Shown here in pieces: positions 28,741 to 58,250 of a stretch of DNA of 64,000 nt; the first letter of the stretch is position 1, and each line of letters begins with the position of its first letter. The stretch is taken from the NCBI GenBank assembly GCA_965235115.1, contig OZ249436.1:62001-126000 (forward strand), in the 5' to 3' direction. The notes under the pieces were generated by a model. It searched no databases and was not told where the DNA came from. It was given only the letters and a program-made list of their open reading frames with translations. The stretch is from Laetmonice hystrix. Its lineage: Eukaryota. The position numbers and the translations under genes are program-made.

Positions 28741-29114
28741 TCCGTGTTAGGCGGTGGCGGTAGAGTTCGGACGTTGTTTCTTCACTCGGTCTCAGAGGGA
28801 CCCTCCGCAAGGTTTTCCATGTTTCGGTAATTTAGAAGACAGTAACCGATACAGGAGTACCCTGGGAATGATCTACTGGAGGCTGTATAATGGACGAATG
28901 TGCTGTACAGGAGTTCTGTAAGAATTTTTCTCTCTATCCTGGGATATCGTTACAGCCATGTTGGGCATTCCATACCTGGCTGTCACACAGGCAGTACTCA
29001 CCGAACCATACTGCACTTGTATGACCCAAACATAGAACAGTGGAAAGGACTACGTGTACTGAAAACGCACTTTCTATCCCCAACTGAATCCTGAGAAACT
29101 TTATATTGAAAATT

Positions 29115-30356
29115 ATGCCTAGAGGAAAACAACTGCCTTCCTCTCCTACCCAATGTATGGAGGCCACTTCCAAAGATACTGCCCTCATTCTGGAGAAACT
29201 GAATCAACTTAGTGAACTACCTAAACTAATGGAAAGTTTCAAAGACGAAGTCAGACAAGATATTAAAGATATCAAAGAGTCATTGGATTTTTCTCACCAA
29301 GAGATAGACGAATGGAAGTATAAATGTAAGGAAAACGCAGCAGAGATCACGCTCCTAAGAGAGGAGCTAAAAAAAGAAAGGACCCTCAATAAAAAGCTGA
29401 GTAATGACTTGATTGCGCTTAATAGGAAAGTGAACAACCAGGAAGATTATTCACGTAAACATAATCCTCTCTTTGATGGGATTAAAAAAGAGACTGGTGA
29501 GAACTGCAAGGAAATAATTTTGAACCTTGTACGCGATAAGTTACAACTGACCACGGACCTGAAAATTGACCTAGCTCATCGTACGGGTAAGCCTTTCCAG
29601 GGAAAGAACAGGTCAATCATGGCCAAATTCTGCTTCTTGGAACACAGGCAGCTGGTGTGGACCAACAGGACCAAACTAAAGGGAACTAGGCTCTTTATGA
29701 GTGAAGATCATTGCGAGGAAACAAAGAGAAACAAATCTAAACTACTTCCCATTCTTAAAGCCGCCTGGAAGCACCACCATAAGGCGACATTTGTGAAGGA
29801 CGAACTCATAATTGACGGAGTACGATATACCTTAAATTCTTTGCACAAACTACCTCAACACCTGGATCCGGTTAAAGTATCCACACCTGCAGTCAACGAG
29901 AATACTTTAGCGTTTTACAGCCAACTGTCGCCACTATCCAACTTTTATCCTTCGCGATTTATTATAAACGGGAAGGAGTACTCATCATCCGAACAGTATT
30001 TCCAACATTCAAAAGCTCTTGCGTGCGAACAGGACGAAATTGCAGCTGGCATCATGAGTGCCACTGAGCCGGTGATTATCAAAAGGTATGGTGACCAAAT
30101 CAAGGTCAACAACAACTGGAACAGACGTAAACTTTCTGAAATGAAAATCGGCTGTGCAGCAAAGTTTGAACAGAATGCATCCCTTAAGGAATTTCTTATA
30201 AATACTGGAAACAAGAACCTGGTACACGCAGGCATGGCCAGATTCTGGGGCGCTGGTGTTCCACTAGGGAGTCCTAATCTGGTGGACAATAGCTGGCCTG
30301 GTCAGAACAAACTTGGTGATGTTCTTGTATCGCTGCGCGAAACTCTGCAAGGTTAG
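29115..30356 (+). CDS. LINE ORF1p: coiled coil plus L1-type RRM/CTD, fused to a C-terminal NADAR (YbiA/DUF1768-like) domain
   Basis: Open frame; first ATG at 29115. It has a heptad-rich N-terminus, then QEDYSRKHNPLFDGI, AHRTG, RSIMAKF and LFMSED (L1-like ORF1). The C-terminal ~150 aa carry FYSQLSPLSNFY, SSEQYFQHSKA, AKFEQN, FWG and GQNKLGDVLVSLRE (NADAR motifs). Confidence 0.9.
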   Translation: MPRGKQLPSSPTQCMEATSKDTALILEKLNQLSELPKLMESFKDEVRQDIKDIKESLDFSHQEIDEWKYKCKENAAEITLLREELKKERTLNKKLSNDLIALNRKVNNQEDYSRKHNPLFDGIKKETGENCKEIILNLVRDKLQLTTDLKIDLAHRTGKPFQGKNRSIMAKFCFLEHRQLVWTNRTKLKGTRLFMSEDHCEETKRNKSKLLPILKAAWKHHHKATFVKDELIIDGVRYTLNSLHKLPQHLDPVKVSTPAVNENTLAFYSQLSPLSNFYPSRFIINGKEYSSSEQYFQHSKALACEQDEIAAGIMSATEPVIIKRYGDQIKVNNNWNRRKLSEMKIGCAAKFEQNASLKEFLINTGNKNLVHAGMARFWGAGVPLGSPNLVDNSWPGQNKLGDVLVSLRETLQG

Positions 30357-30527
30357 TTTTGTTGGTGAATGTTTATTATGTCCCTTTATGTAGATCTTTG
30401 CATATTAGGATTCCGATGTTACCTAACCTTAAAACTATAACAGTTACCAAGTGTTGTCATAAGGATATTTATTATTGTTGCTTAACTGTATTCTTTATTG
30501 ATACTCATATTCTTGCCAATATTTGAA

Positions 30528-30741
30528 ATGGTATCTGTAAACAACAATTGTCCAAATTGTCAACTCTTGAACTGTTATGTTGACCACTGCCATGTTGTTC
30601 TCCCGTTCATGAATGTGGAAACCGACCTTGAACTCGTTGAGAGATTCCCCACGACCACACTCTGAATGTTTTCGATCTTTATAGTGAAGACAATAATCAC
30701 CATGACCTTATAAAATGGAATGACCCCGATAAAAACTTTTA
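30528..30741 (+). pseudogene. N-terminal fragment of LINE ORF2, separated from the rest by the 30742-38863 insertion; probable frameshift near 30640-30660
   Basis: ATG at 30528 reads MVSVNNNCPNC...LPFMNVETDLEL. A shifted frame from 30662 reads LNVFDLY...WNDPDKNF and joins in frame to YSDLSPTSSNYY at 38864 once the insertion is removed. Confidence 0.75.
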
Positions 30742-31735
30742 TGCAGTCAAACTCGGAGAACGGGAATGCTTTGCTGTAGGTTACATTTTATTCACATACA
30801 TAGTAACCCGTTGATCACCCCATGCAATGGGGGACTCTACAAACATTATAATATGGTAAATCTATATAAGGTGTAACTGATATATGTAACAACATAACAA
30901 TACTATAGTAATATAATACATAACCGATAATACATTATATGGAAATACATAGTCCAAAATACATAGATATAGGTATAGTTATGCCTTATTAGGTGGAGAC
31001 AATGCCCACAACATCCAGGAACCCAAATACATCCCTATCCAACCAAACTGAGAAAAGAACTCGGGCAGCCATGCTGACCCCAAGCCAAACCCAGTAGGTC
31101 TACATAAAAACATAATTTAAACCAGGCAAAGGCGTTGAAACATGGAGGAGTCGGGGCGGAGGTGGGCCGTCTGATTTCCACGAAGCTTCCAAAGGTAGAG
31201 AACTCGACTCTTCTGCTCGGTTGTATTTATACCCTCCGGATCGTCTCCCAAGTCGCCTTCGTCATTTCCGACCCAGACCGCGCGAGAGGCGAGAACCAAG
31301 ATGGTGGTTAACGGGAGTACAGCTATTGTTTACATTACCTCGACAATACATACTGAGCACACGACATGGGTCCTAGATTATGTGCGAGTACCTATACTAA
31401 TATACCTACGCAAACCCCTCGTTTCTCCTCCATAAATGATCCCGGCTCTTTGGCGCCGAGCTCGGATTTATGCAGTCAAACTCGGAGAACGGGAATGCTT
31501 TGCTGTAGGTTACATTTTATTCACATACATAGTAACCCGTTGATCACCCCATGCAATGGGGGACTCTACAAACATTATAATATGGTAAATCTATATAAGG
31601 TGTAACTGATATATGTAACAACATAACAATACTATAGTAATATAATACATAACCGATAATACATTATATGGAAATACATAGTCCAAAATACATAGATATA
31701 GGTATAGTTATGCCTTATTAGGTGGAGACAATGCC
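30742..31735. repeat. 265-bp direct repeat B (30742-31006 and 31471-31735) flanking one copy of the 302-bp repeat A (31169-31470)
   Basis: tgcagtcaaactcgg...gagacaatgcc occurs twice and looks identical by eye. Confidence 0.95.
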
Positions 31736-32497
31736 ACTAAGCGGAATCGAAGATGAAGCTGGAGCCACCAAAGAAGGCAGGAGAAAAGACTCCTAACGCG
31801 ACCCGCTGACACCGCCCCAGGAGCCAAATCTACGCATCACCGTCAGACACAACTTGGAAATTAGGCACAGATCATCTCCTGGCCTAAACGAACGGATAGC
31901 GGAACCCATCATCATCCAGTCCGATTAGGGGCATCTGGTGTACCTGCAACAAGCATATCAAGGCTTTGAATCATAAGACATACGGAAGAAGACCTTAGAT
32001 CCTTGGAGTCAACATCATAACGTCAGGTTAACAAGTTATAACACCCAGCTGCTTGACCAAACAGGAAGCACCCACCATTAAACTCCATTACACCATACTT
32101 ACTTATCCTGGGAAATTGTGATAGACTGAGAAACTGGTGGAAAAACGTGACGGTATCCCATTCTACCACCTGGGACCATACTATAAATATTTAATAATAA
32201 ATAACCGAACCGGGCAACAATCCAAACTTCCTCGTCACTGAACCGTGCGACAAAGCTACCTCGTCACTGCACCGGACAACATTCCAATTAAAGCTTACTT
32301 CATCCACCTCCTTCAACGCGTCGTCTATCTAGCCGCCCCCGAGCACTTACCTACCACTTTGTACGGTACCAAACTAGTACCCACCAGACAGCTACAGAGC
32401 CCAACACTTAATGATACACGGATCGTAACGTAAGCATAAGGTAACGTAAAAAGGGAAGACTACTGGAATAACAAATACTGGAGGTGAAGGACGCGCA

Positions 32498-33510
32498 AAC
32501 GTAGCAGGAACCATGAAAGTCGTAGTCAAAAACCGTGGAATCGGTTCACGCTTGGGAGTCCAACATACATCCAACATCGGATCTCTTGGGCCCGGGAGGT
32601 TTCCCAAAACTTAAAAAGATAACTGATCTCCGTATATACACATACACATAATAACCACATAACCACATCACATACACATAATAACCACAGGATCACATGA
32701 ACAAGTTAAATGCCTTGATATCCGAGACCAACCACAAACATGGGTTAAGCCTATACGCGGCAAGTATTCCACATACCTACAAGAAATACATTCCATAGAG
32801 ATGGTAACTAAAGGAACCACTAAACCAAAACAACCTCTGAACCATACCGAACCTTGAATAATATAATTCGACAGCCCTTCGAACAACATCACAGGTTCAA
32901 AACACGGGGAATTGACTTACCCACATCAGTAAACCTCCAAAGTCAACCGAAGACACATACTCAGCCAAACGTATCAGGAACCATGAAAGTCGTAGTCAAA
33001 AACCGTGGAAACGCTTCACGCTTGGGAGTCCAACATACATCCACATCGGACCTCTCGGGCCCGGGAGGTTTCCCAAAACTTAAAAAGATAACTGATCTCC
33101 GTATATACACACACATAATAACCACATAACCACATCACATACACATAATAACCACAGAATCATATGAACAAGTTAAAGGCCTTGATATCCGAGACCAACC
33201 ACAAACATGGGTTAAGCCTATACACATAATAACCACATGAACAAGTTAAAGGCCTTGATATCCGAGACCAACCACAAACATGGGTTAAGCCTCTACGCGG
33301 CAAGTATTCCACATACCTACAAGAAACACATTCCATAGAGATGGTAGCTAAAGGAACCTCTAAACCAAAACAACCTCTGAACCATACCGAACCTTGAATA
33401 ATATAAATCAACACTCAGCCTTCGAACAACATCCCAGGTTCAAAACACGGGGAATTGACCTTACCCACATCAGTAAACCTCCAAAGTCTACCAAAGACAC
33501 ATACTCAGCC
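32498..33510. repeat. Tandem duplication of ~470 bp, with a further short duplication in the second copy
   Basis: aacgta(g/t)caggaaccatgaaagtcgtagtc begins at ~32498 and ~32968; both copies end in ...agacacatactcagcc. Confidence 0.9.
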
Positions 33511-34395
33511 TTCCATCAGCTCTTATCAGTACAAATGAATGTGTAAATATAGAATACGTCCCACGACCCATGCACCAAAGCCATATGCTCAGCCTGTCGT
33601 CCACCTAAAATGGAAAATAACAAAAGACCGAAGAAACATCTGGCAGAGGAATAATAGTTACTGCCCTATGACAAATACAATCAACTCAATATCAAAAAAT
33701 TGCATAAATTCCGCTTATACATTATGACAAATCAAATTAATCATCCAAAAATACGATAATACTTATTACCTTTATAGTTAACATTGAAATTATATAGTTA
33801 GACGAAATTACGATAAATATATAATATAATTATAGCCCTCAACACAAAGTAAAAACTAAATAGGCAACATTTAACTAAGGTGACAACCCTGACTAACATT
33901 GTTAATAATTCTATCTAAGATACCTAATATTACCAAATTAACAAAATAGTACATTGAAAATTTGACAAGATAATTTACAAAGTTAATGAACAAGATATTT
34001 AAGTGCAGACGGTCCCACCATAGCCCGAAGGCGAGGCAGATCCAAAAAGCGTAAACACATAGTACACACTAAAATACAGTAGAAGTGACCTGACTTACTA
34101 ACACAACCTACCGACCTAAAATGACTTCTTAAACAACTTTAAAACAAGAAAATAAAGATTCAGCCCTAATCCTCGAAAAAGGCAGAGCGGAGGGGACATC
34201 CCCTCGCATCCATATACATAGGTACCCATCGATCACCCATCATGGGGACTAGAAGTACAATGCACCAAAGGATGTGGCAGCCTGCGGAAACCAGGCACAT
34301 CTGCCGTAAAACAACTTGTAATATAACGGGGATGACGGAACCGAAGGGACCACACCGTCGACCCCAAGGTAATCCTATCAAGGGAGGACAGAACC

Positions 34396-35053
34396 CCACG
34401 GAACACGACACCACCCCCCAACCAAGTTAACACAACCACAAGGGAAGGCGGAACCGAAGGGACCACACACCGTCAACCCCACGGAACACGGCCCCATCCC
34501 CCAACCAAGTTAACACAACCACAAGGGAAGGCGGAACCGAAGGGACCACACACCGTCAACCCCACGGAACACGGCCCCATCCCCCAACCAAGTTAACACA
34601 ACCACAAGGGAAAGCGGAACCGAAGGGACCACACACCGTCAACCCCACGGAACACGGCCCCATCCCCCAACCAAGTTAACACAACCACAAGGGAAAGCGG
34701 AACCGAAGGGACCACACACCGTCAACCCCACGGAACACGGCCCCATCCCCCAACCAAGTTAACACAACCACAAGGGAAGGCGGAACCGAAGGGACCACAC
34801 ACCGTCAACCCCACGGAACACGGCCCCATCCCCCAACCAAGTTAACACAACCACAAGGGAAAGCGGAACCGAAGGGACCACACACCGTCAACCCCACGGA
34901 ACACGGCCCCATCCCCCAACCAAGTTAACACAACCACAAGGGAAAGCGGAACCGAAGGGACCACACACCGTCAACCCCACGGAACACGGCCCCATCCCCC
35001 AACCAAGTTAACACAACCACAAGGGAAAGCGGAACCGAAGGGACCACACACCG
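34396..35053. repeat. 83-bp minisatellite, ~8 copies
   Basis: cggaaccgaagggaccacacaccg recurs at 34449, 34532, 34615 and onward. Confidence 0.95.
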
Positions 35054-35443
35054 TATGTTACACCACATTAAGCCCACATCAGCAGAGCCCCGTTATTCGT
35101 AAACACAACACCCCCCCCCCCCACACCCCCCTCCTCCAACACACACACACACACCTCACTAACACGAGGAAGGGTGGGGTGGGGTGGGTCTACAAACTAT
35201 TGGCAAAATACTTAAACGACAAAACCTTTCAGATGAGGTGGTAGCTAAATCTACACGCCTATTAATCAGGGGCAATTAGATTAAATGATGTAAATCCTGA
35301 AACAGAGGGACAGGTAGTCTGCCTAGTAAGGTTCAGGGGACAACTAAACTCAAAAATACAAAATCAAATACTTACAAATGGATAGACTCAAAACAAAGCA
35401 ACCACAAGGAGTGAATACCAAACTACTACATAGAAAACTAGTT

Positions 35444-37378
35444 ACAAGGTGCCATGGGCACAGGAATCCCATTCACCAGGTGAAAGGGATAAATAAAGGT
35501 GCATAATGAAAGACCATATAACTTCCTATTAGTGTTTAATAATAACTATGGCTCTATCTTGAACCATTTACTAGTTATAGCTGTTGGAAAATATAGGTTA
35601 CCTCCTTATGACATCATGACCCTCTGAAAATATCGATGACGTCACTGTGACGTCATGGGTCACGTGACCAAAAAGATAATGGTGCATAATGAAAGAGCAT
35701 ATATGACTTCGTATTACTGTTTAATAGTAACTATGACTCTATCTTCAACCATTTAGAAGTTATAACCCTTAGAAAATCTAGGTGACCTGATGACGTCATA
35801 GGTCACGTGACCTGAAATATAAAGATGCATAATGAAAGAGCATAGCTTCCTATTGGTGTTTAATAGTAACTATGACTGTATCTTCAACCATTTAGAAGTT
35901 ATAACCATGAGAAAATCTAGATGACCTCTTTATGACGTCATAGGTCACGTGACCTGAAAACTAAAAGTTCATAATGAAAGAGTATATGACTTCCTACTTC
36001 CTATTAGTGTTTAATAGATCTATGCCTCTATCTTCAACCATTTGGAAGTTATAGCCCTGGGAAAATATAGGTGACCTCCTTATGACGTCATAGGTCATGT
36101 GACCTAAAAAATAAAGGTTCATAATGAAAGACCATGACTTCCTATTAGTGTTTAATAGTAACTATGGCTCTAGCCTGAACCATTTCCTAGTTATAGCTGT
36201 TGGAAAATATAGGTCACCTCCTTATGACGTCATGACCCTCTGAAAATATCGATGACGTCATTGTGACGTCATGGGTCACGTGACCGAAAAATAATGGTGC
36301 CAAACGGAAGAGCATATATGACTTCCTATTAAAGTTCTATAGTAATTTAGGCTCTATCTTCTATAGTTTCTGACTTACGGCCCTCTAAAAATATCGATGA
36401 CGGCACTGTGACGTCACGGGTCACGTGACTGAAAAAATAATGGTGCCAAATGGAAGAGCATATATGACTTCCTATTCGAATTCTACAGTAACTTAGGCTC
36501 TATCTTCTATAGTTTCCGACTTATGGCCCTTTAAAAATATCATTGACGTCACTGTGACGTCATAGGTCACGTGACCGAAAAAATAATTGTGCAAAACGGT
36601 AGAGCATATATGACTTCCTATTCAAGTTCTATAGTAACTTAAGCTCTATCTTCTATAGTTTCTGACTTATGACCCTCTGAAAATATCGATGACGTCACTG
36701 TGACGTCATGGATCACGTGACCAAAGAAATAATGGTGCTAAACGGAAGAGCATATATGATTTCCTATACATGTTCTATAGTAACTTTAGCTATATCTTCT
36801 ATGGTTTCAGAGTTATACCACTTTATTGCATTATGACCTAATATTTAGATGTTTGAGGTCACGTGACTCAGTAAATATATGGAAAATCGAAAAAATCAAT
36901 GCATTTTTATAAGTGGGCCGCCACTGGGCATCCTTGGTAAAAGTTTCATCCCAATCGGACAAAAATTGAGTGAGGAGTAGGGATTTAAGTGATTTCTTTA
37001 TTTTGACCTAGTTCTTATATAGTTCAAAGGTCAAAGGTCAAACTGCCCTCCATAATTTTGCTAACCCCTTTTCCAATAATGCTGATGGCAATAGATTTTC
37101 AAAAAGTCTAATTTACTATGAAATACAGGCCTATATATCATGACGTATTTTACGTCATTTCGTCATGATGTTACGTCATACGACGTCATGGGTCACGTGG
37201 CCAACTCATCTTCTCAGGGGGAATCTAAGTGCCAAGTTTCATTGAGATATCTTGAAAAATAATACCAATTAGGGTACAAAGTTAACTACAGGAATAATAA
37301 TAATGAAAAAAAAAAAAAAGGAAGACGAAACCATACAATTTCAAAATCCCATTCACCTAGAAGGTGAATGGGATAATA
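35444..37378 (-). mobile_element. Helentron-associated non-autonomous element (HINE/DINE-1-like) carrying an internal ~146-bp tandem array
   Basis: One end has ACAAG, the imperfect hairpin GTGCCATGGGCAC and the subTIR ATCCCATTCACC. The other end has an A-rich simple repeat and the hairpin ATCCCATTCACC-TAGAA-GGTGAATGGGAT. About 9 units (gaaagagcatatgacttcctatt...) lie between. Confidence 0.75.
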
Positions 37379-38561
37379 ACATTGACGAAATCCCCCTACC
37401 ATGCGACTGCATCAATGAACCACACTGAACAGTGAGAGGCACCTGTCCAGTTCCCGATATAATATCAGGGATAAGCCACTCGTTGGCTACAAGAGAAAGA
37501 AAATGATCAGCGACACTAAATTAGAGTCCAACAAGTCAGGTAAAATTACATTCATCAAACCATCTCCAAAGCTTATCAGGTTAAAGCTGGTGCCAATACA
37601 TCCAGATTAATCTGTCCACCGTAAATAAATACTTCTACCCGAATAACAGCACCACATACCGCTCGAATACCAGCGCAGCATACCCACATCCAAAAAGCAC
37701 CCCAAGCAAACGGCAAGAAGCATTGCCGCCAAGCGATAAACACTGTATTTAACATAATCTAGGGAGGGCACTTCGAAAACCATACCAACTGTTGCAATTA
37801 GGAGCAGCAGTAAACGCCTATATAAGACGGGACTAGATAAATTAAAGAACACCCGGCGTGTCAAGTTACAGCAGTTCACTGGTCAAGTCCCAAACCACCG
37901 AAGGACACAACATAACTTCTACCAACCTTCAACCCCACATAGTGAGGACTAGCGAAAAACACCAACTCCACGACAATGTAGGCCTACCTCACACTTTTAC
38001 GAGCCTACCCCCACCATGATACACCACGTGGCAGGACAAACCGTTGTAGGCCTATAAGCTCAACCTTGGTACCGAACGCTATTACCCTACTCAACACGGA
38101 GTAAACCACGGTAAAACAAAACTGAAATTATCGTACCCCCACTACCATTCTGGGACAAATACGTACACAAAATTACACAACATAGCACCGCCGACGTCGT
38201 CAGTCGCCCTCAATGTGTGGTGAACTAAAATAACTACAAACTCATAACACAAATTGTCTACCAGGAGCTTCAAGTAGGCTAGCCGAGCCCGAACCACAAA
38301 GGTCAGGTCGACCACGTGGAAGCGACTGTGCGTGCTGCAACACTGCATGTGACTATTTCAGACACACATAAATACTGGATACCGGTCTATAATACAGCCT
38401 CGAAAGACGAATAACTGGAACTGTTTTAGACATAACACCTGCATATAGGTGTCAAACACAAGGCAAATATAAGAAACAGTCGACAAACCACGTTCCACCG
38501 TATACTTGAAACGAAGTCCCAACCATAGAACGAACTCACCCGATGTGTGGGGAACGAATCA

Positions 38562-38863
38562 GTCTGATTTCCACGAAGCTTCCAAAGGTAGAGAACTCGA
38601 CTCTTCTGCTCGGTTGTATTTATACCCTCCGGACCGTCTCCCAAGTCGCCTTCGTCATTTCCGACCCAGACCGCGCGAGAGGCGAGAACCAAGATGGTGG
38701 TTAACGGGAGTACAGCTATTGTTTACATTACCTCGACAATACATACTGAGCACACGACATGGGTCCTAGATTATGTGCGAGTACCTATACTAATATACCT
38801 ACGCAAACCCCTCGTTTCTCCTCCATAAATGATCCCGGCTCTTTGGCGCCGAGCTCGGATTTA
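38562..38863. repeat. Second copy of the 302-bp repeat A
   Basis: gtctgatttccacgaagc...gagctcggattta matches 31169-31470; I saw one mismatch (ggatcg vs ggaccg). Confidence 0.95.
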
Positions 38864-41792
38864 CTCTGATCTCAGCCCAACTTCTTCCAACTATTATACT
38901 GTTCAAAGTGCCAAAGATGTTTTTGTTCAAAATTCAGACAGTTTATCATTAATATCTTTAAACATAAGAAGCTTACAAAAGAATGCAGACAAGTTATATA
39001 AAATGCTCGATGATTTTGAATCTCAGATTGATATTGTCTGCTTATGTGAAACATGGACTACCGCGTCCAACTGTGATTTATACAACATATCGGTTTACCG
39101 CAGTGTTCATGTATATAGAGCTAAAAGAAGAGGAGGAGGCGTTGCCATATTTGTCAAAGCAGCGATCACATTCACAAAACTTGACCAATACTCCATGCTG
39201 AATGACGATATAGAATGCACCTTCATACAAATCGATAAGAACATTGTCAAGTCTAATAAACATCTCATTATGGGATCCATATATCGTCCACCTTCAGGCA
39301 ACCCAAACAAATTTATTGATTATATAATCGAAATTATATCCTCGTATGACCAGGATAACTACACAATTATCATTGCTGGAGATTATAATCTTGATCTCTT
39401 CAAGCACAAAAGCAGTGATTTAATTAAGCATTTTTTGGACAGTATGATTAGCTCAAACTGCACACCCTGTATTAACAAGGCCACCCGTATAAGTGAGAAT
39501 ACGAAAAGCCTAATTGATAATATTTTTGTAAATGACTTTCAACTTCACAATATCTGTGGCATTATACTCACTGATATATCTGATCACTTCCCAATATTCA
39601 GCATAATGACACTAAGCAGTAAAACTCGGAGTTATAGTCGAATTAAAAGGTTGTTTAACACTGAAAATATCAACTTGTTTATTGAAAAGATAACAGCAGA
39701 AAACTGGGACAATATTTATGAGACTGAGTCAGTACAGTTATCGTACTCCAGACTCCAGGAGAAAATCTGTGATGCTTTCGATACCTCTTTCCCAGTAAGG
39801 ACTGTAAGTAATCGCTATAAAGACAGGCTGCCTTGGATCTCTCAAGACTTAAAGGCAATTATTCGTCAAAAATATTTAGCTTATCTTAAATCTATTGATA
39901 ATCCGACTCTGCATAATGTAATAACGTATAAAAGGTTGAGAAATATGGTTAATTACAAATTAAGAAGAGAAAAAAGAAATTACTCCCTACATAAACTACG
40001 ATCCGCCAAAAATAATCCTAGACTATACTGGAAAAATATAAACGAAATCATTCTTAACAAAACACAAGACGATAACTTTCCTGATACTTTTATCAATACA
40101 GCAGATGGAACTGATATAGTAGATGATGTAGACATTGCAAATAAATTCAATGATTTTTTTGTCAATATTGATCCCCACCTTGAAAAAGATATTCCAAGCC
40201 CTCGTGCAAATATACTTGACACAATGGGTCCTAGAAATGATTATTCTATCTACCTACAACCAACTGATATCGCAGAAGTCACAAGCATTTTCCACCTATT
40301 GAAAAATGCTAGTGGTGGATGGGATGAATTAAATAAGCATATCTTACAATATATAATTCATCTAATTATAGAACCACTGACTTATATAGTGAATTTATGT
40401 TTAACCACAGGTGAATTTCCAAATGACCTTAAAATAGCCATTGTTAAACCATTATTCAAAGCTAACAACAAGAAACATTTTACAAATTATAGACCCATAT
40501 CGTTACTTCCAACAATATCAAATATTTTCGAAAAGGTTATTGCTACTCGGGTTATGAAATTCCTGACTACTCACAATATTCTGTATCCTCATCAATACGG
40601 TTTCAGGCCAAATCATTCCACGGAGCAAGTAGTAATTTCGTTGATAGACAAACTCAGTAAAGCAATCTCCAATAATGAGCATACCGTTGTTGTTTTCCTC
40701 GATTTTTCCAAAGCTTTTGATACTGTTAACTTTGAAATACTTTTGCTCAAACTAGAACACTACGGTATTAGAGGAACCCCACTAACTTTACTAAAAAATT
40801 ACCTATGTAACCGTACACAACAAGTCAAATACAAACAAGTACTTTCGCACCTTTTGAAAACGACGATGGGTGTTCCCCAGGGATCCATAATTGGCCCGCT
40901 TATGTTTCTAATTTATATTAATGATTTACCTAATGTAATAAACAATTCATCAACATTTCTTTTTGCGGATGACACCACCCCTCTCTTTAGTCACCGCTGC
41001 AAACAACATATAGAGTTAACTAACAATGAACTTTCTAAAATGTACACTTGACTCTGCATAAATAAACTTACATTAAACATCAATAAATCAAAATATATGT
41101 TATTTTCTAAAACTCTCTCTGATGTTGATATCTGCATAAACAATACCATGCTTGAATGTGTGAAATCAATCAAATTTCTAGGATATTATCTCGATAATAA
41201 ACTGTCATGGAAAGCTCATATAGAATATATAAGAAAAAAAGTAGCAAAATCATTAGGCATTATAAATAAAATGCGTCCCCTTCTAACCCAAGAAATTTTA
41301 GTAGATATGTATTATACGTTTGTTCACTGTTATCTAAATTCGGGCATAATTATTTGGGGATCGACACATTTAAATAAAATTGACTCGCTCATTAAGCTTC
41401 AAAAGAAAGCTATTCGTCTAATCACAAATTCCGGATATCGAGATCACACTTTACCTATATTCAACAAACTTAATATCTTACCTCTCCAACAACTTTATAA
41501 TATAAATATTATTCTCTTTATGTTTAAAGTCTATAGAGATAAATTACCAACGGTTATAATAAATCACTTTACACAACGCAATAGTCTAACCTTAAGAACT
41601 ACGCGGCAATCAAACCTCTTTGAGATTCCCAATTATATCAACGACACCTATGAAAGATCAATTTTTGTCAGAGGCCCGAAATACTTTAATAGTTTCTATA
41701 GGCAAACGTTTATTGATCTTTCTCTTTCAGTGCCGACATTTAAACGTGCCCTAAAAGTTGGTATTCTTAGAAATGAATTTCCATTCCCTTAG
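38864..41792 (+). pseudogene. LINE ORF2 body: AP endonuclease plus reverse transcriptase, with one in-frame stop at 41049-41051
   Basis: APE motifs: LNIRSL, LCETW, GGGVAIFV, IYRPP, GDYNLD, IDNIF, SDHFPI. RT motifs: NYRPISLL, QYGFR, FLDFSKAFDTV, GVPQGS, LFADDT. ORFs 38829-41051 and 41097-41792 share a frame, and KMYT*LCINKL suggests TGG>TGA. Confidence 0.95.
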
Positions 41793-42020
41793 AGCTGATG
41801 TCTCCCTATCTGTCATACATATATTTTTTGTGTAACGTTATCATTACAAATTTAGATCGTCAGATGTGTAAATTAATAGTTTATCGTACTCTACCACCTC
41901 CACAGAAATGTTTATTACACTGTACATAATTTGTTATAATCTGTGGACTATATATAGCCGACACTCAAGTTGCTTCCTGTCCACTATTCAAATGATACCA
42001 CATGTATTTTGTTTCATTGT

Positions 42021-42055
42021 AATAAATATTTAAAAAAAAAAAAAAAAAAAAAAAA
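42021..42055 (+). other. Polyadenylation signal and poly-A tail of the LINE
   Basis: AATAAA at 42021-42026 and an A-run at 42032-42055, followed directly by satellite sequence. Confidence 0.9.
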
Positions 42056-44035
42056 CCTGTCTCTCGCCTCAGAGCCACAGGTGCCTGCCAGTACGTGGTG
42101 ATTCCACCGCTAGCCGGAAGGTAGCAGCAGTCGGAGACCCCCCCACACACACACACTTCAATAGAGTTGTGCTGCACCCTGGTGTTTCTTGCTGCAACAT
42201 AACGGTAACCTTCCTTTGTTTGTTTGTTTCTTGGGGATGTGATATCTGATATAGAAAAGGCGTACAACGTCATTTTCCATTGTTAACTAAAGCTTTACGG
42301 CAAACAGTCATTGGAACGACCTGACAACGTTGTCGGACCCTTACAGATGGTCTGTAGGGAACATAGATTAGATGCGAGTAGATGATAGACGAAACGGATG
42401 GCCTTCCTCCTGGACAATAAAGGCATGGAAACATGAAACATGAGGCGTCCCTAGACTACTGGCTACTCTTGTATACAAGCAAACGGTAGAGGAAGGCCAA
42501 ACAGTACAGGGAGGAATGGCTACAAGGTATACTGTCTGGCCTAGCACCCAAGCGAACACTTCAGTGAGGCCAAAGAGTAGGCCTACAGTGAGGCCAAACA
42601 GTACACTGTGGGGCCAAGCAGTGGGCAAGGCCAACCAGTAGAGTGAGAAATCCTTAAATCTTACCGGCTGGCCTAGTACCTATGCAAACACTACAGTGAG
42701 GTAGTGGAAATGAAAGGTACGGGCGAGGAGCATCTAATGTTAAAATCTGGAGAAGATGCTCAAATGGGACGTGTACACATCACAACCATATATCTGTAGC
42801 GAACGTACGAGACCTATACGTTTGACAGTCGTACATCTGGCCTAAGAATTATAATTTTGGGAGGCTTAGTTTCAATTTGACGTATCAAAAATGTAGCCAT
42901 TTTTCGCTTATCATTGCTTTAAGCTGTCTCTCGCCTCAGAGCCACAGGTGCCTGCCAGTACGTGGTGATTCCACCGCTAGCCGGAAGGTAGCAGTGCAGT
43001 CGGGGACCCCCCCCCCCCCGCTTCAGTGGAGTTGTGCTGCACCCTGGTGTTTCTTGCTGCAACATCTCGGTAACCTTCCTTTGTTTGTTTGTTACTTGGG
43101 GATGTAATATGTGATATAGAAAAGGCGTACAACGTCATTTTCCATTGTTAACTAAAGCTTTACGGCAAACAGTCATTGGGACCACCTGACAACGTTGTCG
43201 GACGCTTACAGATGGTCTGTATGGGACATACATTAGATGGGAGTAGATGATAGACGAAACGTATGGCCTTCCTCCTGGACAATAAAGGTATGGAAACATG
43301 AAACATGAGGCGTCCCTATACTACTGGCTACTCTTGTATACAAGCAAACGGTAGAGGAAGGCCAAACAGTACAGGGAGGAATGGCTACAAGGTATACCGT
43401 CTGGCCTAGCACCCAAGCGAACACTACAGTGAGGCCAAAGAGTAGGCCTACAGTGAGGCCAAACAGTACACTGTGGGGCCAAGCAGTGGGCAAGGCCAAC
43501 CAGGAGAGTGAGAAATCCTTAAATCTTACCGGCTGGCCTAGTACCCATGCAAACACTACAGTGAGGTAGCGGGAATGAAAGGTACAGGCGAGGAGCATCT
43601 AATGTTAAAATCTGGAGAAAATGTTCAAATGGGAAGTGTACACATCACAACCATATATCTGTAGCGAACGTACGAGACCTATATGTTTGACAGTCGTACA
43701 TCTGGCCTAAGAATAATAATTTTGGGAGGCTTAGTTTCAATTTGACGTATCAAAAATGTAGCCATTTTTCGCTTATCATTGCTTTAACCTGTCTGTCGCC
43801 TCAGAGCCACAGGTGCCTGCCAGCCCGGTCAGGTGTACGTGGTGATTCCACCGCTAGCCGAAAGGGAGCAGTGCAGTCGCCGACCCCGCCGCCGCTTCAG
43901 TGGAGCTGCGCTGCACCCTGGTGTCTCTTACCTGCAACATCTCTGTAACCTTCCTTTGTTTGTTTGTTTGTTACTTGGGGATGGCATACTTGGGGATGGC
44001 ATATGGCATATGTCATTTGCCATTGTTAACTAAAC
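42056..44035. repeat. Terminal, more diverged part of the ~860-bp satellite (remainder of the interrupted unit plus ~2 units)
   Basis: Same unit with private substitutions and insertions (cccggtcaggtg near 43825). Similarity ends after cattgttaactaaa. Confidence 0.95.
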
Positions 44036-45159
44036 CTTAGCCAATTGTAATAATAAATGGCAAATGGCAACTATTCAAAGCATTCGGAACACCGAGCCTT
44101 TTACGATGTAGAGAGACTCGGATACCAATCGGAGGTCGCCATATTGGGTCAGATGGGGTCAGCGCACTATGGGTCATGACCCCCTATTTAGCCAATGGGC
44201 TGCTGGTTGTCCCTCAAAAAAAAGTACGGAGTGAATGTATCTAAGGCCAAGAATGGATATAACCCCCCTGAATGTGCTCATCAAATACCACAGAGAAAAA
44301 GTTCACTATATGATCAATAATATCAGTGTATTATTAGAGAATATCTGCTTAACTTTCCTTGGAAAATCTTAGCCAATATGTTATGTATCACAGGCCTGTA
44401 TTCTGGTCGATTTGGTGGTGCCACCTGGGGTCATGTAACAGAAGCTCCGATAAAATGAAATCTAATCATTCAACCTATACGTAAATTGAGTTTTTATTGT
44501 CGGAAACATGCATATCTAACCTGCCATGCCAAGCAGACATTCGCAGAAATTATTTTAAACATTGAAAATGGCCAAAACATTACATTAAATTATAGAAGAA
44601 AATAAATAGTGGATCATAACCTATATTGTCGTAGCGTCCCATGTAAACAATGGCGGCCACTCGCCAGTGTCTGGGCTGTGGTGCTGTCAATAGACGGCTT
44701 TCTTCGTTAGTTGGCAAAGAAACTGAAACCGAATTTGTCACGGATTGTAGCCTTTCTTGACAATGACATTAGCCATGAAAACGTGAAAACGTGAAAACGT
44801 GAAAACGTGGACTAGGCCTATTCCTTATTTAGCATGCATGATCCGTGCGATAAGAGGATCGAATCAAGGTAGCCTGTCAAACCGTTACACGCCACCGTTG
44901 AATCGTCACACCCGTTTTTCTGTGACGGTTTGAACTTTGACTTCTTTCATTTTACGGGATTGTGATGGTTCATTTTGACCACTTGGCTCTCATGTTAAGC
45001 GTTGAACACACTTGTGTTGAATCCAGTGAAATCAAGGCAAATAATACGGCAAATCCATAGGCTACGCACAGTGGTTCAATATTATGAGCCAGGGCGACTC
45101 GGAGCCCGCGGACCACCGGGGCGCCCTAGCTGTCCCCACCGGCATTCGGGAATATAGGG

Positions 45160-45704: not shown

Positions 45705-47087
45705 CACTTTGCTGGGCACAAGCGACCGTCCTCTCGTTCCATTTGGACGTGGTGGACTTGAGTCCTGCTCGATTAGCTTCCATTTTTAAACAAGCGGTCA
45801 ACGTGTCATGCCGTCTATGATCCACTGAGGTGGCCCCGTTGAAAACACTGCAGGGGGTAGATCTATCTGTGTGGGCGTGAGTTTTTTTCCTATTTTCTTG
45901 TTTCTGTAATACTAAATTCGGAATTATTTCGACAATTACGTTCTCTCGGCACTGAACCGCGTCGCTTTGTTTGTACATCTCCAGCTCAGTCGTTCATAGG
46001 GGGCGCTGTATTTTGAGGTCACAAAAAGTGGCCTAATTGCGTATCCCCCCATTCTTGCTGAAGACAAGAATAAAACAAGAATAGTAGAATCCATTCTACT
46101 ATTCTTGCTGAAAGTCGTATGTGGGACCCTTTCCGTTGTCCTTAATGGTGCCCTTCTGTTTATTTTTAAATGTTTTTTTTTCAACACAAGTACATAAAAT
46201 CATTATTCTGCACCAGTACATAAAATTATAATTCCATGATAATATGTCGCATAAGAGCTCACTTCGAGAGAAAATAACGAGAAAATCGAGGTGACAACCG
46301 AGAGGTGCTGTCTATAGCACCGCGATGATAGGTAGGCGTCGCTGTGGCCGAAAAGGTAACAGCGCTGGACGGTGATGCCGCCGTGCATGGTTCGAATCCT
46401 CCCGACGGCAAACACCATAAAGTGGCGATATGCGTATGGCCATGGGGGCCAGAATATCCCACGTGTATACCATTAAATGTGTACTCATCGTACTGCCGAG
46501 CACTGTAGGTCGACTGTATGTGGGAACGAGTGGTTTATATACCTCAGTGTTCTCGTCCTTAATGTTTATTCGTTTTATTTATTAACAAGAACTGTCAGGG
46601 TTAGCTCTACGTATAATGTATATAATGTATAAAATCTATTTTACTTCATCGAGAGCACTCAACCAGAGCCAAAGGTTACATGACCGATATTGTGTAACCG
46701 GTTTACTGAGAAGCCTAGATAGATTTAGAGTAGATTAGATTTTATTGGAACAAAAACTGGACTGGAACAAAAACAATTCACAGGGCAAGGTGATTATTAC
46801 CAGACATGATTTCAATCGATAATTGGCATCAAAAAGTATAAATGACCGCCTCATGTAGACCAAGGGTAATAACATACATTACATTCTGTTCAATTATTTA
46901 GTTATATAGCGTGAATATATCATGGCTATAATTATGGCCATGATTGAACATGTATATATCCATACACTCTTTCTTCATCGGTGATTCTGGACAACATTCC
47001 ACTGTTCTGGTCCTCCGGCAAGTGACGTTGCCATCTCCATATATGTACATGTACATGTATGTATATTTCCTATACACTCAGGCGCCT

Positions 47088-50061
47088 AAGAAGCTGTTGT
47101 TGGATGGGGGGGGGGGCTGAGAGTTGCTGGTCTGTGGTAAGAAGCTGTTGTTGGTTGGTTGGGGGGGGGGGGACTGAGAGTTGCTGGTCTGTGGTAAGAA
47201 GCTGTTGTTGGTTGGTTGGGGGTGGGGGGACTGAGAGTTGCTGGTCTGTGGTAAGAAGCTGTTGTTGGTTGGGGGGGGGGGGCTGAGAGTTGCTGGTCTG
47301 TGGTAAGAAGCTGTTGTTGGTTGGTTGGGGGGGGGGGGGACTGAGAGTTGCTGGTCTGTGGTAAGAAGCTGTTGTTGGTTGGTTGGGGGGGGGCTGAGAG
47401 TTGCTGGTCTGTGGTAAGAAGCTGTTGTTGTTGGTTGGGGGGGGGGGGGGGCTGAGAGTTGCTGGTCCGTGGTAAGAAGCTATTGTTGGTTGGGGGGGGG
47501 GGGCTGGGAGTTGCTGGTCTGTGGTGAGAAGCTGTTGTTGGTTGGGGGGGGGGGGCTGAGAGTTGCTGGTCTGTGGTGAGAAGCTGTTGTTGGTTGGGGG
47601 GTGGGCTGAGAGTTGCTGGTCTGTGGTGAGAAGCTGTTGTTGGTTGGTTGGGGGGGACTGAGATTTGCTGGTCTGTGGTAAGAAGCTGTTGTTGGTTGGT
47701 TGGGGGGGGGGACTGAGAGTTGCTGGTCTGTGGTAAGAAGCTGTTGTTGGTTGGTTGGGGGGGGGGGGGGTGCTGAGAGTTGCTGGTCTGTGGTAAGAAG
47801 CTGTTGTTGTTGGTTGGGGGGGGGGGGCTGAGAGTTGCTGGTCTGTGGTAAGAAGCTATTGTTGGTTGGGGGGGGCTGGGAGTTGCTGGTCTGTGGTAAG
47901 AAGCTATTGTTGGTTGGGGGGGGCTGGGAGTTGCTGGTCTGTGGTAAGAAGCTATTGTTGGTTGGGGGGGGCTGAGAGTTGCTGGTCTGTGGTAAGAAGC
48001 TGTTGTTGGTTGGGGGGGGGCTGAGAGTTGCTGGTCTGTGGTAAGAAGCTGTTGTTGGTTGGTTGGGGGGGGGGGCTGAGAGTTGCTGGTCTGTGGTAAG
48101 AAGCTGTTGTTGGTTGGTTGGGGGGGGGGCTAAGAGTTACTGGTCTGTGGTAAGAAGCTGTTGTTGGTTGGTTGGGGGGGCTGAGAGTTGTTGGTCTGTG
48201 GTAAGAAGCTGTTGTTGTTGGTTGGGGGGGGGGGCTGAGAGTTGCTGGTCTGTGGTAAGAAGCTGTTGTTGGTTGGGGGGGGGGACTGAGAGTTGCTGGT
48301 CTGTGGTAAGAAGCTGTTGTTGGTTGGGGGGGACTGAGAGTTGCTGGTCTGTGGTAAGAAGCTGTTGTTGGTTGGGGGGGGGGGGCTGGGAGTTGCTGGT
48401 CTGTGGTAAGAAGCTGTTGTTGGTTGGGGGGGGGGGCTGAAAGTGGCTGGTCTGTGGTAAGAAGCTGTAGTTGGTAGGGGGGCTGAGAGTTGCTGGCCTG
48501 TGGTGAGAAGCTGTTGTTGGTTGGGGGGGGCTGAAAGTTGCTGGTCTGTGGTAAGAAGCTGTTGTTGGTTGGGGGGGGGGGCTGAGAGTTGCTGGTCTGT
48601 GGTAAGAAGCTGTTGTTGGTTGGTTGGGGGGGGGGCTGGGAGTTGCTGGTCTGTGGTAAGAAGCTGTTGTTGGTTGGTTAGGGGGGGGGGACTGAGAGTT
48701 GCTGGTCTGTGGTAAGAAGCTGCTGTTGTTGGTTGGGGGGGGGGCTGAAAGTGGCTGGTCTGTGGTAAGAAGCTGTAGTTGGTAGGGGGGCTGAGAGTTG
48801 CTGGCCTGTGGTGAGAAGCTGTTGTTGGTTGGGGGGGGGGGGCTGAAAGTTGCTGGTCTGTGGTAAGAAGCTGTTGTTGGTTGGGGGGGGGGGCTGAGAG
48901 TTGCTGGTCTGTGGTAAGAAGCTGTTGTTGGTTGGGGGAGGCTAAGAGTTGCTGGTCTGTGGTAAGAAGCTGTTGTTGGTTGGGGGGGGGCTGAGAGTTG
49001 CTGGTCTGTGGTAAGAAGCTGTTGTTGGTTGGGGGGCTGAGAGTTGCTGGTCTGTGGTAAGAAGCTGTTGTTGGTTGGGGGGGGGGGGCTGAGAGTTGCT
49101 GGTGCTGGTCTGTGGTAAGAAGCTGTTGTTGTTGGTTGGTTGGGGGGGGGGGACTGAGAGTTGCTGGTCTGTGGTAAGAAGCTGTTGTTGGTTGGGGGGG
49201 CTGAGAGTTGCTGGTCTGTGGTAAGAAGCTATTGTTGGTTGGGGGGCTGAGAGTTGCTGGTCTGTGGTAAGAAGCTGTTGTTGTTGGTTGGGGGGGGGAC
49301 TGAGAGTTGCTGGTCTGTGGTAAGAAGCTGTTGTTGGTTGGGGGGGGGCTGAGAGTTGCTGGTCTGTGGTAAGAAGCTGTTGTTGTTGGTTGGGGGGGGG
49401 ACTGAGAGTTGCTGGTCTGTGGTAAGAAGCTGTTGTTGGTTGGTTGGGGGGGGGGCTGAGAGTTGCTGGTCTGTGGTAAGAAGCTGTTGTTGGTTGGGGG
49501 GGGGGCTGAGAGTTGCTGGTCTGTGGTAAGAAGCTGTTGTTGGTTGGGGGGGGGGGCTGAGAGTTGCTGGTCTGTGGTAAGAAGCTGTTGTTGGTTGGGG
49601 GGGCTGAGAGTTGCTGGTCTGTGGTAAGAAGCTGTTGTTGGTTGGTTGGGGGGGGGGCTGAGAGTTGCTGGTCTGTGGTAAGAAGCTGTTGTTGGTTGGG
49701 GGGGGGACTGAGAGTTGCTGGTCTGTGGTAAGAACCTGTTGTTGGTTGGTTGGGGGGGGGGGCTGAGAGTTGCTGGTCTGTGGTAAGAAGCTGTTGTTGG
49801 TTGGGGGGGGCTGAGAGTTGCTGGTCTGTGGTAAGAAGCTGTTGTTGGTTGGTTGGGGGGCTGAAAGTGGCTGGTCTGTGGTAAGAAGCTGTTGTTGGTT
49901 GGGGGGGACTGAGAGTTGCTGGTCTGTGGTAAGAAGCTGTTGTTGTTTGGTTGGGGGGGGGGCTGAGAGTTGCTGGTCTGTGGTAAGAAGCTGTTGTTGG
50001 TTGGGGGGGGGGGGGCTGAAAGTGGCTGGTCTGTGGAAAGAAGCTGTTGTTGGTTGGGGGG
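47088..50061. repeat. Minisatellite of ~42-52 bp with a variable poly-G run
   Basis: Unit ctgagagttgctggtctgtggtaagaagctgttgttggtt(g)n. Confidence 0.97.
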
Positions 50062-50599: not shown

Positions 50600-51640
50600 G
50601 CATATTCGTGTTGAATAGTATTCATGTTCAATAGCCATGGCTCATCGTGCACCGTTTACGAGTAATATAGGCCTTATGAAATATTGATGATGTCATTATG
50701 ACGTCATACATCACGCTATGTCGCGAATCTTGGTGTCATTTGAAAGAGGATCTATGACTTCTTATTCATGTTCAATAGAAACCATGGCTTTATCTCCCAC
50801 CATTTACGAGTTACGTATTATTGGTATAGTGATGACGTCATTATGACATCGTCTGTCACGCGACGTCATGAATATTGGGGTCAATTGAAAGAGCATGTAT
50901 GACTTCCTATTGACGATCAATAGTAAATATGGCCCTATCCCTATCCCCGTTTTCGAGTTATAGGTCAAAGAAAATACTAATGACGTCATTAGGACGTCAT
51001 ACGTCACGCTACCTAATAAATGTTTGTGTCAATTGAAAGAGCATAATTTATGACTTCCTATTCATGTTCAATAGTAACCATGGCTTTATCTCCCACCGTT
51101 TAGGAGTTATAGGCCTTAGAAAATATTGATGGCGTCATTATGACGTCATACGTCACGGTACGTCATCAAACTTGGCGTCAGTTGAAAGAGCAGGCATGAC
51201 TTCCTATTCGTGCTAAATAGTAACTATGGCACCGTTTCTTAGTTATAAACTCTATATTGACCACTGTTCAAAATAGGTCACGTGAATATAGGTCACATCA
51301 ATTGTAGCAGGGCCGATTCCTTTGAAGCTCTCGTTTTATGGAAAATTAGGGAAGAAGTAGGGATTTAAGCATTTTCTGACCTTTGACCCAGCTTTCAGAC
51401 ATGTCAAAGGTCAAAGGTCAAATATTTGCAAAATATATTAATTAGGTCCTTGCCCAATTCTGACAGAGTCAACTGTTCTTCAAAGGTATATCCATAGTTA
51501 CCTTGAAAAGCATCACAATAGCCAGAATACGAATGACGTCATGCCGTTACGTCATATGACGCCATGACTCATTGTCGGATCACATTTCGTGACTATCAAT
51601 ATGTCCACTAAGTTTGAGTTAGATATCTTGAAAAGCGATA
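50600..51640 (-). mobile_element. Diverged relative of the 35444-37378 element; ends not resolved
   Basis: ~147-bp units (gaaagagcat...tgacttcctattcatgttcaatagtaac) followed by agtagggatttaag, tcaaaggtcaaaggtcaaa and agatatcttgaaa, in the same order as at 36970-37260. Confidence 0.7.
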
Positions 51641-57760: not shown

Positions 57761-58250
57761 TTCTTCAAACGTTCCCCTTCATACCAGAAATTTATATTTG
57801 CACATAAAACACCGAAGGAGCAGGTGTCAATAATGCACTACTTCCTGGCTCGATGGGATATGACGGTTCACTCAGTGCCTCGCTACACACCTCCATTTGG
57901 CCATGTATCTGGTTGCCAAACATGGCCAATAATCCACCCGAGGGTATATTCGAATAGTAGGAAGTGACGTCATATATGCCCGAGGGAATCCCGAATGGGG
58001 AGAAACATGGATTTTTTTGCTTTTTTCGAAAGTTATGGATTTCCATTATTTAATGGAAAACTTGCAACCCTGGAACTTACTGAGCGATAATAGGATACAC
58101 CTTCCTTCATATATTTAGATTCAATAAAAAGAGGAAGACAGAGATTCTTTGGACACTGGCATTGACACTCTAGGCCTAATAATTGAAATGTAAATTAAAG
58201 ATCCTCTTTAATCGCAACAAAAATAACCTACTTGTCACTTGGAACTGCTT

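Follow-up and report, generated by a model that had tools for sequence, protein, structure and literature searches.

The window analyzed here is a stretch of 64,000 nucleotides from the genome of Laetmonice hystrix (GenBank assembly GCA_965235115.1; contig OZ249436.1, positions 62,001 to 126,000 of the forward strand), and coordinates are those of the window unless another contig is named. It holds, within satellite DNA, a copy of a long interspersed nuclear element (LINE) whose first open reading frame (ORF1) encodes a protein of 413 amino acids (aa). As judged from profile searches and a predicted structure, this protein is an L1-type ORF1p, with a presumed coiled coil, an RRM, and a C-terminal domain (CTD), that continues in frame into a NADAR domain of the YbiA family. 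An in-frame stop lies 27 nt 5' of the ATG. The parts of the frame are as follows.

29115..30356, plus strand: ORF1p-NADAR fusion ORF, 413 aa, open
29217..29456 (aa 35-114), plus strand: long helix, presumed coiled coil (helix in the AlphaFold2 [AF2] model; weak coiled-coil-type matches)
29466..29900 (aa 118-262), plus strand: RRM and CTD of an L1-type ORF1p (family profile against the Protein Data Bank [PDB]; Foldseek)
29925..30350 (aa 271-412), plus strand: NADAR domain (Pfam, phmmer, Foldseek)

Residues 271 to 412 matched the Pfam NADAR model (PF08719) over profile positions 10 to 163 of 163 with an E value of 3.2e-31 and a score of 109.2 bits against a cut-off of 35.1, a match far beyond chance, and a phmmer search of the PDB with the same region recovered the NADAR of Phytophthora nicotianae (PDB code 8BAU; E = 1e-10) and Escherichia coli YbiA (PDB code 2B3W; E = 1.3e-9). 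We then aligned 30 members of the family, 11 from the L. hystrix genome and 19 public representatives (alignment A1), in all 30 of which the Pfam NADAR domain was detected. The A1 profile retrieved the same two structures with greater significance (8BAU, E = 3.3e-29; 2B3W, E = 1.3e-26). Searches of Pfam and the PDB with the N-terminal ~270 aa as a single sequence returned only coiled-coil noise, and the Pfam L1 ORF1 models matched none of the 30 family members (0/30). The A1 profile, in contrast, recovered human LINE-1 ORF1p (PDB codes 2YKP and 2YKO; E = 3.1e-14), aligning from profile position 70 onward with the end of the coiled coil, then with the RRM and the beginning of the CTD; it also matched the isolated RRM-CTD (2LDY; E = 3.3e-9) and RRM (2W7A; E = 9.9e-6) structures. 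Thus, with single-sequence Pfam searches silent in this region, the L1-type identity of the N-terminal half is visible only by profile.

The AF2 model built on A1 (mean pLDDT, 90.1; pTM, 0.70) comprises a single 80-residue helix (aa 35 to 114), an alpha/beta region (aa 118 to 262), and a mainly helical C-terminal domain. A Foldseek search of the PDB with this model placed 8BAU first (E = 1.3e-10; target-normalized TM score, 0.72) together with 2B3W (E = 4.6e-9; TM, 0.75), followed by a chain of the L1 ORF1p trimer (2YKO_A; E = 3.3e-7; TM, 0.71); the predicted structure of the C-terminal part matches the YbiA fold, a helical core with small flanking sheets. The first-pass annotation, made from the nucleotide sequence without database searches, had described a normal coiled-coil/RRM/CTD ORF1 running without a stop into a NADAR domain of about 150 aa. 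Both parts of that description hold: the frame is open, all of the motifs that it had quoted are present in the 413-aa protein (AFYSQLSPLSNF, SSEQYFQHSK, AKFEQNASLKEFLINTG, FWGAG, and GQNKLGDVLVSLRE), the Pfam match lies far above the cut-off, YbiA-type structures are the top folds, and both profile and model lead to L1 ORF1p at the N terminus.

The protein shares with human LINE-1 ORF1p the long N-terminal helix, the RRM, the CTD, and the position upstream of an ORF2 coding for an APE-type endonuclease and a reverse transcriptase (RT). The two are only ~15 to 17% identical, and the human protein ends after the CTD, without an enzyme domain. Stand-alone NADARs of the YbiA family differ in turn from the present one, which is fused to the RNA-binding protein of a retrotransposon. 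LINE ORF1 proteins reportedly carry other accessory domains, namely, esterase and PHD domains and CCHC knuckles, as Khazina and Weichenrieder are said to have described in 2009; like these, the NADAR is an extra module on a nucleic-acid-binding first ORF, and it differs from them in fold and chemistry.

The LINE copy and its surroundings

The first-pass annotation had also taken the NADAR to be cargo of the LINE and not a neighboring host gene. This proved correct: with a nested insertion removed, the ORF1 frame lies upstream of an APE-RT ORF2, the element ends in a poly(A) tail, and satellite flanks it on both sides. The accompanying description of a full-length element with exact boundaries stands for the boundaries alone; ORF2 is broken and does not directly follow ORF1. 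The remaining features of the copy are best described in relation to a second copy on contig 8, which is 98% identical and has an ORF1-NADAR, a spacer of ~175 nt to the first ATG of ORF2, and an ORF2 of 1,059 aa with APE and RT domains.

28741..42055, plus strand: entire LINE copy with its nested insertion of 8.1 kb (last satellite base before the copy, 28740; satellite again from 42054-42056; alignment of the contig-8 copy, 28748-30741 and 38860-42054)
28741..29114, plus strand: 5' untranslated region (UTR), running from the satellite junction to the start codon of ORF1; common to the contig-8 copy from 28748
30528..30741, plus strand: 5' remnant of ORF2, with a deletion of ~34 nt at 30640 relative to the contig-8 copy
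30742..38859, plus strand: nested insertion of two non-coding elements, 8118 bp, made up of 725 bp (30742-31466) and 7389 bp (31471-38859)
38860..41792, plus strand: rest of ORF2 (APE endonuclease and reverse transcriptase), in ORFs 38829..41051 and 41052..41792
41793..42055, plus strand: 3' UTR, with AATAAA at 42023-42028 and a 24-nt poly(A) tail at 42032-42055

The stretch from 30742 to 38859 is recognizable as an insertion within ORF2 because, relative to the contig-8 copy, window position 30741 joins 38860 directly. ORF2 of the window retains matches to the Pfam endonuclease (Exo_endo_phos; E = 1.9e-13) and reverse transcriptase (RVT_1; E = 6e-27) models and carries an in-frame stop at 41049-41051. 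With its ~34-nt deletion, 8118-bp insertion, and premature stop in ORF2, the window copy is dead. The best explanation is that it belongs to a poly(A)-type LINE that was active recently; the ORF1-NADAR frame of the copy is still open despite the damage to ORF2.

The affinity of ORF2 was sought by several routes. In a phmmer search of the PDB, its match to human L1 ORF2p was weak (E = 2.3e-9) and similar to that to R2 (E = 5.5e-9), its ESM Atlas matches were generic APE-RT clusters, and a pattern search found no C-terminal CCHC motif in it. The flanks of the contig-8 copy differ from the window satellite, so the two copies compared have no common target site, in contrast to the insertion at one particular repeated sequence by which Tx1 LINEs would be recognized. 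The satellite has a repeat unit of ~860 bp, shows higher-order variants, and occupies positions 1-28740 and 42054-44038 in copies that are 92 to 99% alike. Where uninterrupted, the satellite reads ...GCTTT and then AAGCTGTC at the insertion point, and its continuity across the LINE corresponds to the step from 10788 to 10789; no target-site duplication was seen at the LINE insertion in the window.

The two nested elements have identical ends (TGCAGTCAAACTCGGAG... and ...GCCGAGCTCGGA) and are arranged head to tail in the order TTTA, first element, TTTA, second element, TTTA. In the regions 34392-35054 and 35626-36816, the longer one includes a tandem array of an 83-bp unit, with 8 copies that are 98% alike, and repeats of 146/292 bp in which TGACGTCA palindromes abound. 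The longest open frame of the whole insertion (132 aa) lies within the 83-bp array. An array of 145/297 bp at 50619-51230 is related. Elsewhere in the window, strongly G-skewed minisatellites are found among positions 47087-50061, 58250-58759, and 60593-64000 (48-bp unit, 57 copies; 34-bp unit, 99 copies; runs of G9-11), as is a 36-bp array of 14 copies with 99% identity.

Family size and selection

A six-frame search of the 627-Mb L. hystrix genome gave 103 scored matches among 862 candidates, with identities of 29 to 97%; counted from the match table, 74 of these 103 span at least residues 76 to 409 without a stop. Searching the genome with the Pfam NADAR model gave 150 scored matches of 741 candidates, mostly in open frames of 400 to 480 aa, and searching it with the RRM-CTD part alone gave 150 of 396, about two-thirds of them in frames of at least 380 aa. 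At all four loci that we extended (ORF1 identities of 97, 54, 37, and 32%), an APE-RT ORF2 lies directly downstream. Pairs of near-identical ORF1-NADAR copies on the same strand occur on contig 11 (16139946 and 16147522, 7.6 kb apart; loci L013 and L014) and on contig 18 (12303406 and 12378000, 75 kb apart), and these might have arisen by tandem or segmental duplication of entire elements.

The family extends well beyond this genome. Public cluster representatives matched in 13,978 cases at E <= 1e-3 and in 698 at E <= 1e-30, and in 136 of the best 150 the RRM-to-NADAR region was found in a single stretch; the other 14 are five multi-NADAR proteins and nine fragments, most of which cross the CTD-NADAR junction. 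A homologous-protein search yielded 11 matches, and in the ESM Atlas two look-alike clusters with a NADAR include a few members recorded as Annelida. The multi-NADAR proteins (P0012, P0013, P0015, P0109, and P0147) have 3 to 7 tandem NADAR repeats, seven in the case of P0012, a 4,240-aa protein of Haliotis rufescens. In the repeats inspected from P0013, P0015, P0109, and P0147, other residues stand in for the first catalytic Glu and for the Glu motif of the last strand, and these repeats look non-catalytic.

To gauge selection, Nei-Gojobori counts were made between three families, namely, the window family and two relatives (L006 and L008; identity of the window to its relatives, ~55%), which belong to the His clade discussed below; near-identical copies have too few changes for an informative comparison. 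The proportion of synonymous differences (pS) is saturated, at 0.77 to 0.90, and the proportion of nonsynonymous differences (pN) is 0.27 to 0.29 in the ORF1 part and 0.24 to 0.29 in the NADAR part. As pN is similar in the two parts, the NADAR is as constrained as the RNA-binding part, and purifying selection on it is supported. Thus, none of the outcomes that the first-pass annotation had named as fatal to its proposal, a failure of the NADAR model to match, a domain missing from other copies, or one evolving neutrally, was observed; the NADAR is kept across diverged families of this genome and in public representatives, and the order of ORF1-NADAR before an APE-RT frame, whose consistency it had proposed to check, recurs at every extended locus.

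These data bear on a passenger reading, in which a fragment captured from a host would persist by hitchhiking, without function for the element. A possible source can be pointed to in molluscan multi-NADAR host proteins, such as that of H. rufescens. Retention in frame across families at saturated pS, the low pN, the architecture kept in the great majority of the best public representatives, and the conservation of the catalytic residues (see below) all run counter to it, and on this sequence evidence the passenger reading is strongly disfavored, to the point of being highly improbable. Very probably, selection maintains the domain as a functional part of ORF1p.

Active site and proposed function

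Residues were mapped through HMMER alignments to 8BAU, with numbering according to section 12 of PMC11543638 (the chain index equals the number in that paper plus 2), and the correspondence was checked on K75, G78, R79, V81, Y84, D86, W89, R93, E125, D130, and W133. The first helix of NADARs bears a catalytic Glu and a catalytic Lys, which are E43 and K50 in the P. nicotianae NADAR (PMC11543638) and E88 and K95 in the E. coli C7 NADAR. The window protein, which resembles 8BAU and 2B3W in fold with TM scores of 0.72 to 0.75, keeps both, as E293 (29991-29993) and K300 (30012-30014), together with K323 (K75), G326 (G78), W335 (W89), and W378 (W133); R79, Y84, and D86 of 8BAU are unmatched in it. 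Across the family, we tallied residues in an hmmalign alignment of 155 sequences, the window protein plus 154 representatives of 250 to 760 aa (6 of 160 were dropped by length).

E43 equivalent: E in 152/155
K50 equivalent: K in 135/155, R in 9/155
W89 equivalent: W in 149/155
E125 equivalent: E in 140/155, H in 4/155
D130 equivalent: D in 117/155, N in 23/155
W133 equivalent: W in 144/155

The family at large therefore keeps the E125 and D130 of 8BAU, whereas the clade of the window has His for E125. To judge from these residues, the ORF1 NADARs as a group look like competent enzymes, and the domain is probably an active hydrolase.

Characterized NADARs cleave ADP-ribose off the N2 position of guanine in DNA (PMC11543638, PMC11125620) and likewise off guanosine in RNA (PMC11833690); they are described as inactive on thymidine-linked ADP-ribose and, in PMC11833690, on RNA and DNA ADP-ribosylated at a phosphate end. 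Because their known action is on guanine-linked ADP-ribose, we read the ORF1 domain as an eraser of guanine ADP-ribosylation borne by the ribonucleoprotein (RNP), which would keep template and product copyable. By homology with L1 ORF1p, the protein would coat the RNA of its own element in many copies and be carried along to the site of insertion; both cis coating and trimerization are assumed by analogy with L1 ORF1p. As ORF1p coats the RNA, many copies of the hydrolase would be arrayed along the template, near the nascent cDNA and the nicked target. There the NADAR would cut ADP-ribose off guanines of the template RNA or of the DNA and so unblock reverse transcription, the mark having been laid on nucleic acid by a host or foreign ADP-ribosyltransferase. 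By analogy with characterized NADARs, the chances that the domain is such an RNP-borne eraser seem to us evenly balanced, and base-ADP-ribosylated nucleic acid is a tentative choice of substrate that comes close to that balance or falls a little short of it. A role in counter-defense, which the first-pass annotation had proposed, would follow by the same analogy.

Four sets of observations weigh against this proposal. (i) In the window protein, H371 (30225-30227) replaces E125, the Glu that defines the YbiA family, and A375 (30237-30239) stands at the place of D130, a change private to this copy, Asp being present in all 7 other family copies (7/7). With both changes, the NADAR of the window copy may be impaired. 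(ii) No writer was recovered: three Pfam families of toxin-type ADP-ribosyltransferases, PF22596 (Scabin-like), PF03496 (ADPrib_exo_Tox), and PF01375 (Enterotoxin_a), had 0 matches in the L. hystrix genome. Since 14 control genomes were equally silent, this ADP-ribosyltransferase null says nothing either way. (iii) YbiA and a phage NADAR failed to rescue cells from DarT1 in vivo (PMC11125620) despite activity in vitro, which suggests that NADAR specificity is narrow and unreadable from sequence. (iv) E. coli YbiA has a metabolic role too, as an N-glycosidase acting on riboflavin intermediates (PMC11125620, PMC11543638).

The His substitution was examined on a tree drawn with midpoint rooting and without an outgroup, for which the removal of 7 near-duplicates from 63 NADAR domains left 56. 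H371 is common to the window family and the two families ~55% identical to it, which form one branch with support of 99/92, and on this tree the change to His in the LINE elements took place inside the ORF1 family. With Glu in 140 of the 155 sequences and His in 4, the ORF1 NADARs are, as a group, of the YbiA type, and the window clade is a His variant of it. The last-strand Glu that defines the YbiA family is replaced by Asp in BC4488 and by His in the phage gp30.3 NADARs, and all four NADAR subtypes tested, that of the phage included, hydrolyzed guanosine-ADP-ribose in vitro (PMC11125620). The activity of the phage His type makes the His variant of the LINE clade compatible with catalysis.

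The same residues are relevant to the idea of a noncatalytic reader, in which the domain would bind ADP-ribose or poly(ADP-ribose) and steer the RNP to PARP-marked breaks or to ADP-ribosylated partners. The loss of the YbiA Glu from the window clade, with the additional loss of the Asp from the window copy, is in keeping with such a role, as are P0013, P0015, P0109, and P0147, which lack both an E43-type Glu and a Glu-type last-strand motif in the stretches inspected. Conservation of the catalytic set throughout the family (E in 152/155, K or R in 144/155, and E in 140/155) would not be expected of a mere binder, and a phage NADAR of the His type hydrolyzes guanosine-ADP-ribose in vitro (PMC11125620), so that we consider a reader quite improbable.

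Catalytic conservation makes an enzyme likely, yet sequence does not fix the substrate, and an active N-glycosidase or hydrolase might act on something other than a defensive mark and serve to tidy the RNA of the element instead of countering defense. The substrate could be a by-product that derives from NAD or ADP-ribose during RNA processing, a 5' end of RNA of the NAD type, ADP-ribose linked to cytidine, or a small-molecule nucleotide. Processing of an RNA intermediate has been suggested for NADARs in retroelements (PMC12477816), the riboflavin intermediates of YbiA are a precedent for such N-glycosidase chemistry (PMC11125620, PMC11543638), and the title of a 2026 paper reports reversal of cytidine ADP-ribosylation by NADARs (PMC12945103). 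On the other side, among nucleic-acid substrates guanosine-ADP-ribose alone has been demonstrated for each of the four subtypes tested (PMC11125620), the phosphate-end modifications of RNA and DNA are not attacked (PMC11833690), and a metabolic role brings no obvious gain to a retrotransposon. Compared with the erasure of guanine ADP-ribosylation, we regard this as unlikely, although less so than the reader.

Protein, finally, might be the target, with the NADAR stripping off ADP-ribose that host PARPs, acting to restrict the element, had placed on ORF1p, ORF2p, or host factors. This would agree with the general logic of ADP-ribosylation in antiviral defense and with the co-occurrence of macro domains and NADAR in nidoviruses (PMC11848433, PMC12377751). 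The NADAR substrates in the passages cited are bases, and protein de-ADP-ribosylation is not reported in them; a protein target is, in our estimate, more doubtful still than a reader.

NADAR domains in other genetic parasites and significance of the fusion

A NADAR also occurs in an LTR (long terminal repeat) element of the same genome. At locus L035 (contig 1, 23016500-23023499; ORF 2815-6999, plus strand), the Pol protein of a Gypsy element combines an aspartic protease, a NADAR (Pfam E = 1e-29), RT, RNase H, and an integrase, with a gag-like ORF upstream. NADAR matches in frames of ~1650 aa number two in the genome, the second being a frame of ~1649 aa on contig 8 at 28856722. The Gypsy NADAR is 35% identical to that of the window and has His at the E125 position (LVHACRDKFWG). 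In the 56-domain tree, drawn by midpoint and without an outgroup, it falls outside the LINE His clade without a firm position, and an exchange of the domain between that clade and the Gypsy element finds no support there. By its sequence and domain context, the NADAR of this Gypsy Pol is a second capture, made here by an LTR element.

NADARs have likewise been described in Pol of Ectocarpus Gypsy elements (PMC12477816) and in the polyproteins of invertebrate nidoviruses, one oyster virus included (PMC11848433, PMC12377751). By these accounts, they are independent captures by RNA-based parasites of different lineages, in which the carrier is Pol or a replicase polyprotein and not ORF1p. Among DNA parasites, T4-like phages deploy NADAR against DarTG1 (PMC11825919). 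The phage gp30.3-type NADARs resemble the window domain in being NADARs of a genetic parasite and in having His at the last strand, as described in PMC11125620, and they provide counter-defense by erasing guanine ADP-ribosylation (PMC11125620, PMC11825919); they differ in being stand-alone proteins with a known opponent, DarT1. A search of a phage collection with the window NADAR found homologs in 479 of 50,697 records at 28 to 38% identity, mostly from Staphylococcus, Bacillus, and Streptomyces phages; no T4-like phage was among the 25 phage matches listed, nor was Escherichia among the ten commonest organism names. Several of these phage homologs are annotated as "GTP cyclohydrolase."

The first-pass annotation had been unable to confirm that an ORF1-NADAR fusion is undescribed. 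The architecture is already in print, as a brief remark: ORF1 of several Tx1 LINE families of Crassostrea gigas in Repbase contains NADAR domains of the YbiA family, which are suggested to process the RNA intermediate (PMC12477816; Genome Biol 2025). No other report of a LINE ORF1-NADAR was present among the matches listed in the full-text literature on NADAR, DUF1768, or YbiA together with retroelements. As far as a comparison by description goes, the oyster Tx1 LINEs and the present element have the same architecture, a NADAR in the ORF1 of an invertebrate LINE. Relative to that account, which consists of one paragraph and one supplementary alignment, the new elements here are the size of the family, the evidence for selection, the catalytic tallies, the His subclade, and the parallel Gypsy capture in an animal genome.

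To our knowledge, the ORF1 proteins of well-studied LINEs are regarded as RNA-binding chaperones without enzymatic activity. A conserved and apparently active hydrolase on ORF1p would mean either that retroelement RNA or DNA is ADP-ribosylated in these animals or that the element needs this chemistry for its own RNA. Three kinds of RNA-based parasites, namely, LINEs, an LTR element of the same genome, and invertebrate nidoviruses, have a NADAR, and phages use NADAR against DarT1. We offer as a speculation, itself rather unlikely, that base ADP-ribosylation is an unrecognized restriction of retroelements and RNA viruses in lophotrochozoans, with NADAR erasers captured independently for counter-defense by LINE ORF1p (in hundreds of families), by the Gypsy Pol of this genome, and by invertebrate nidoviruses. 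If this were true, the LINE clade, the Gypsy element, and the phages would present a convergence on a His-type active site. The fusions also supply natural NADARs on an RNA-binding scaffold, in versions with Glu and with His in the active site, as material for the study of substrate specificity. With NADARs at hand from LINEs, an LTR element, nidoviruses, and phages, an animal anti-parasite immunity acting through the ADP-ribosylation of nucleic acids would be directly testable by a simple enzyme assay.

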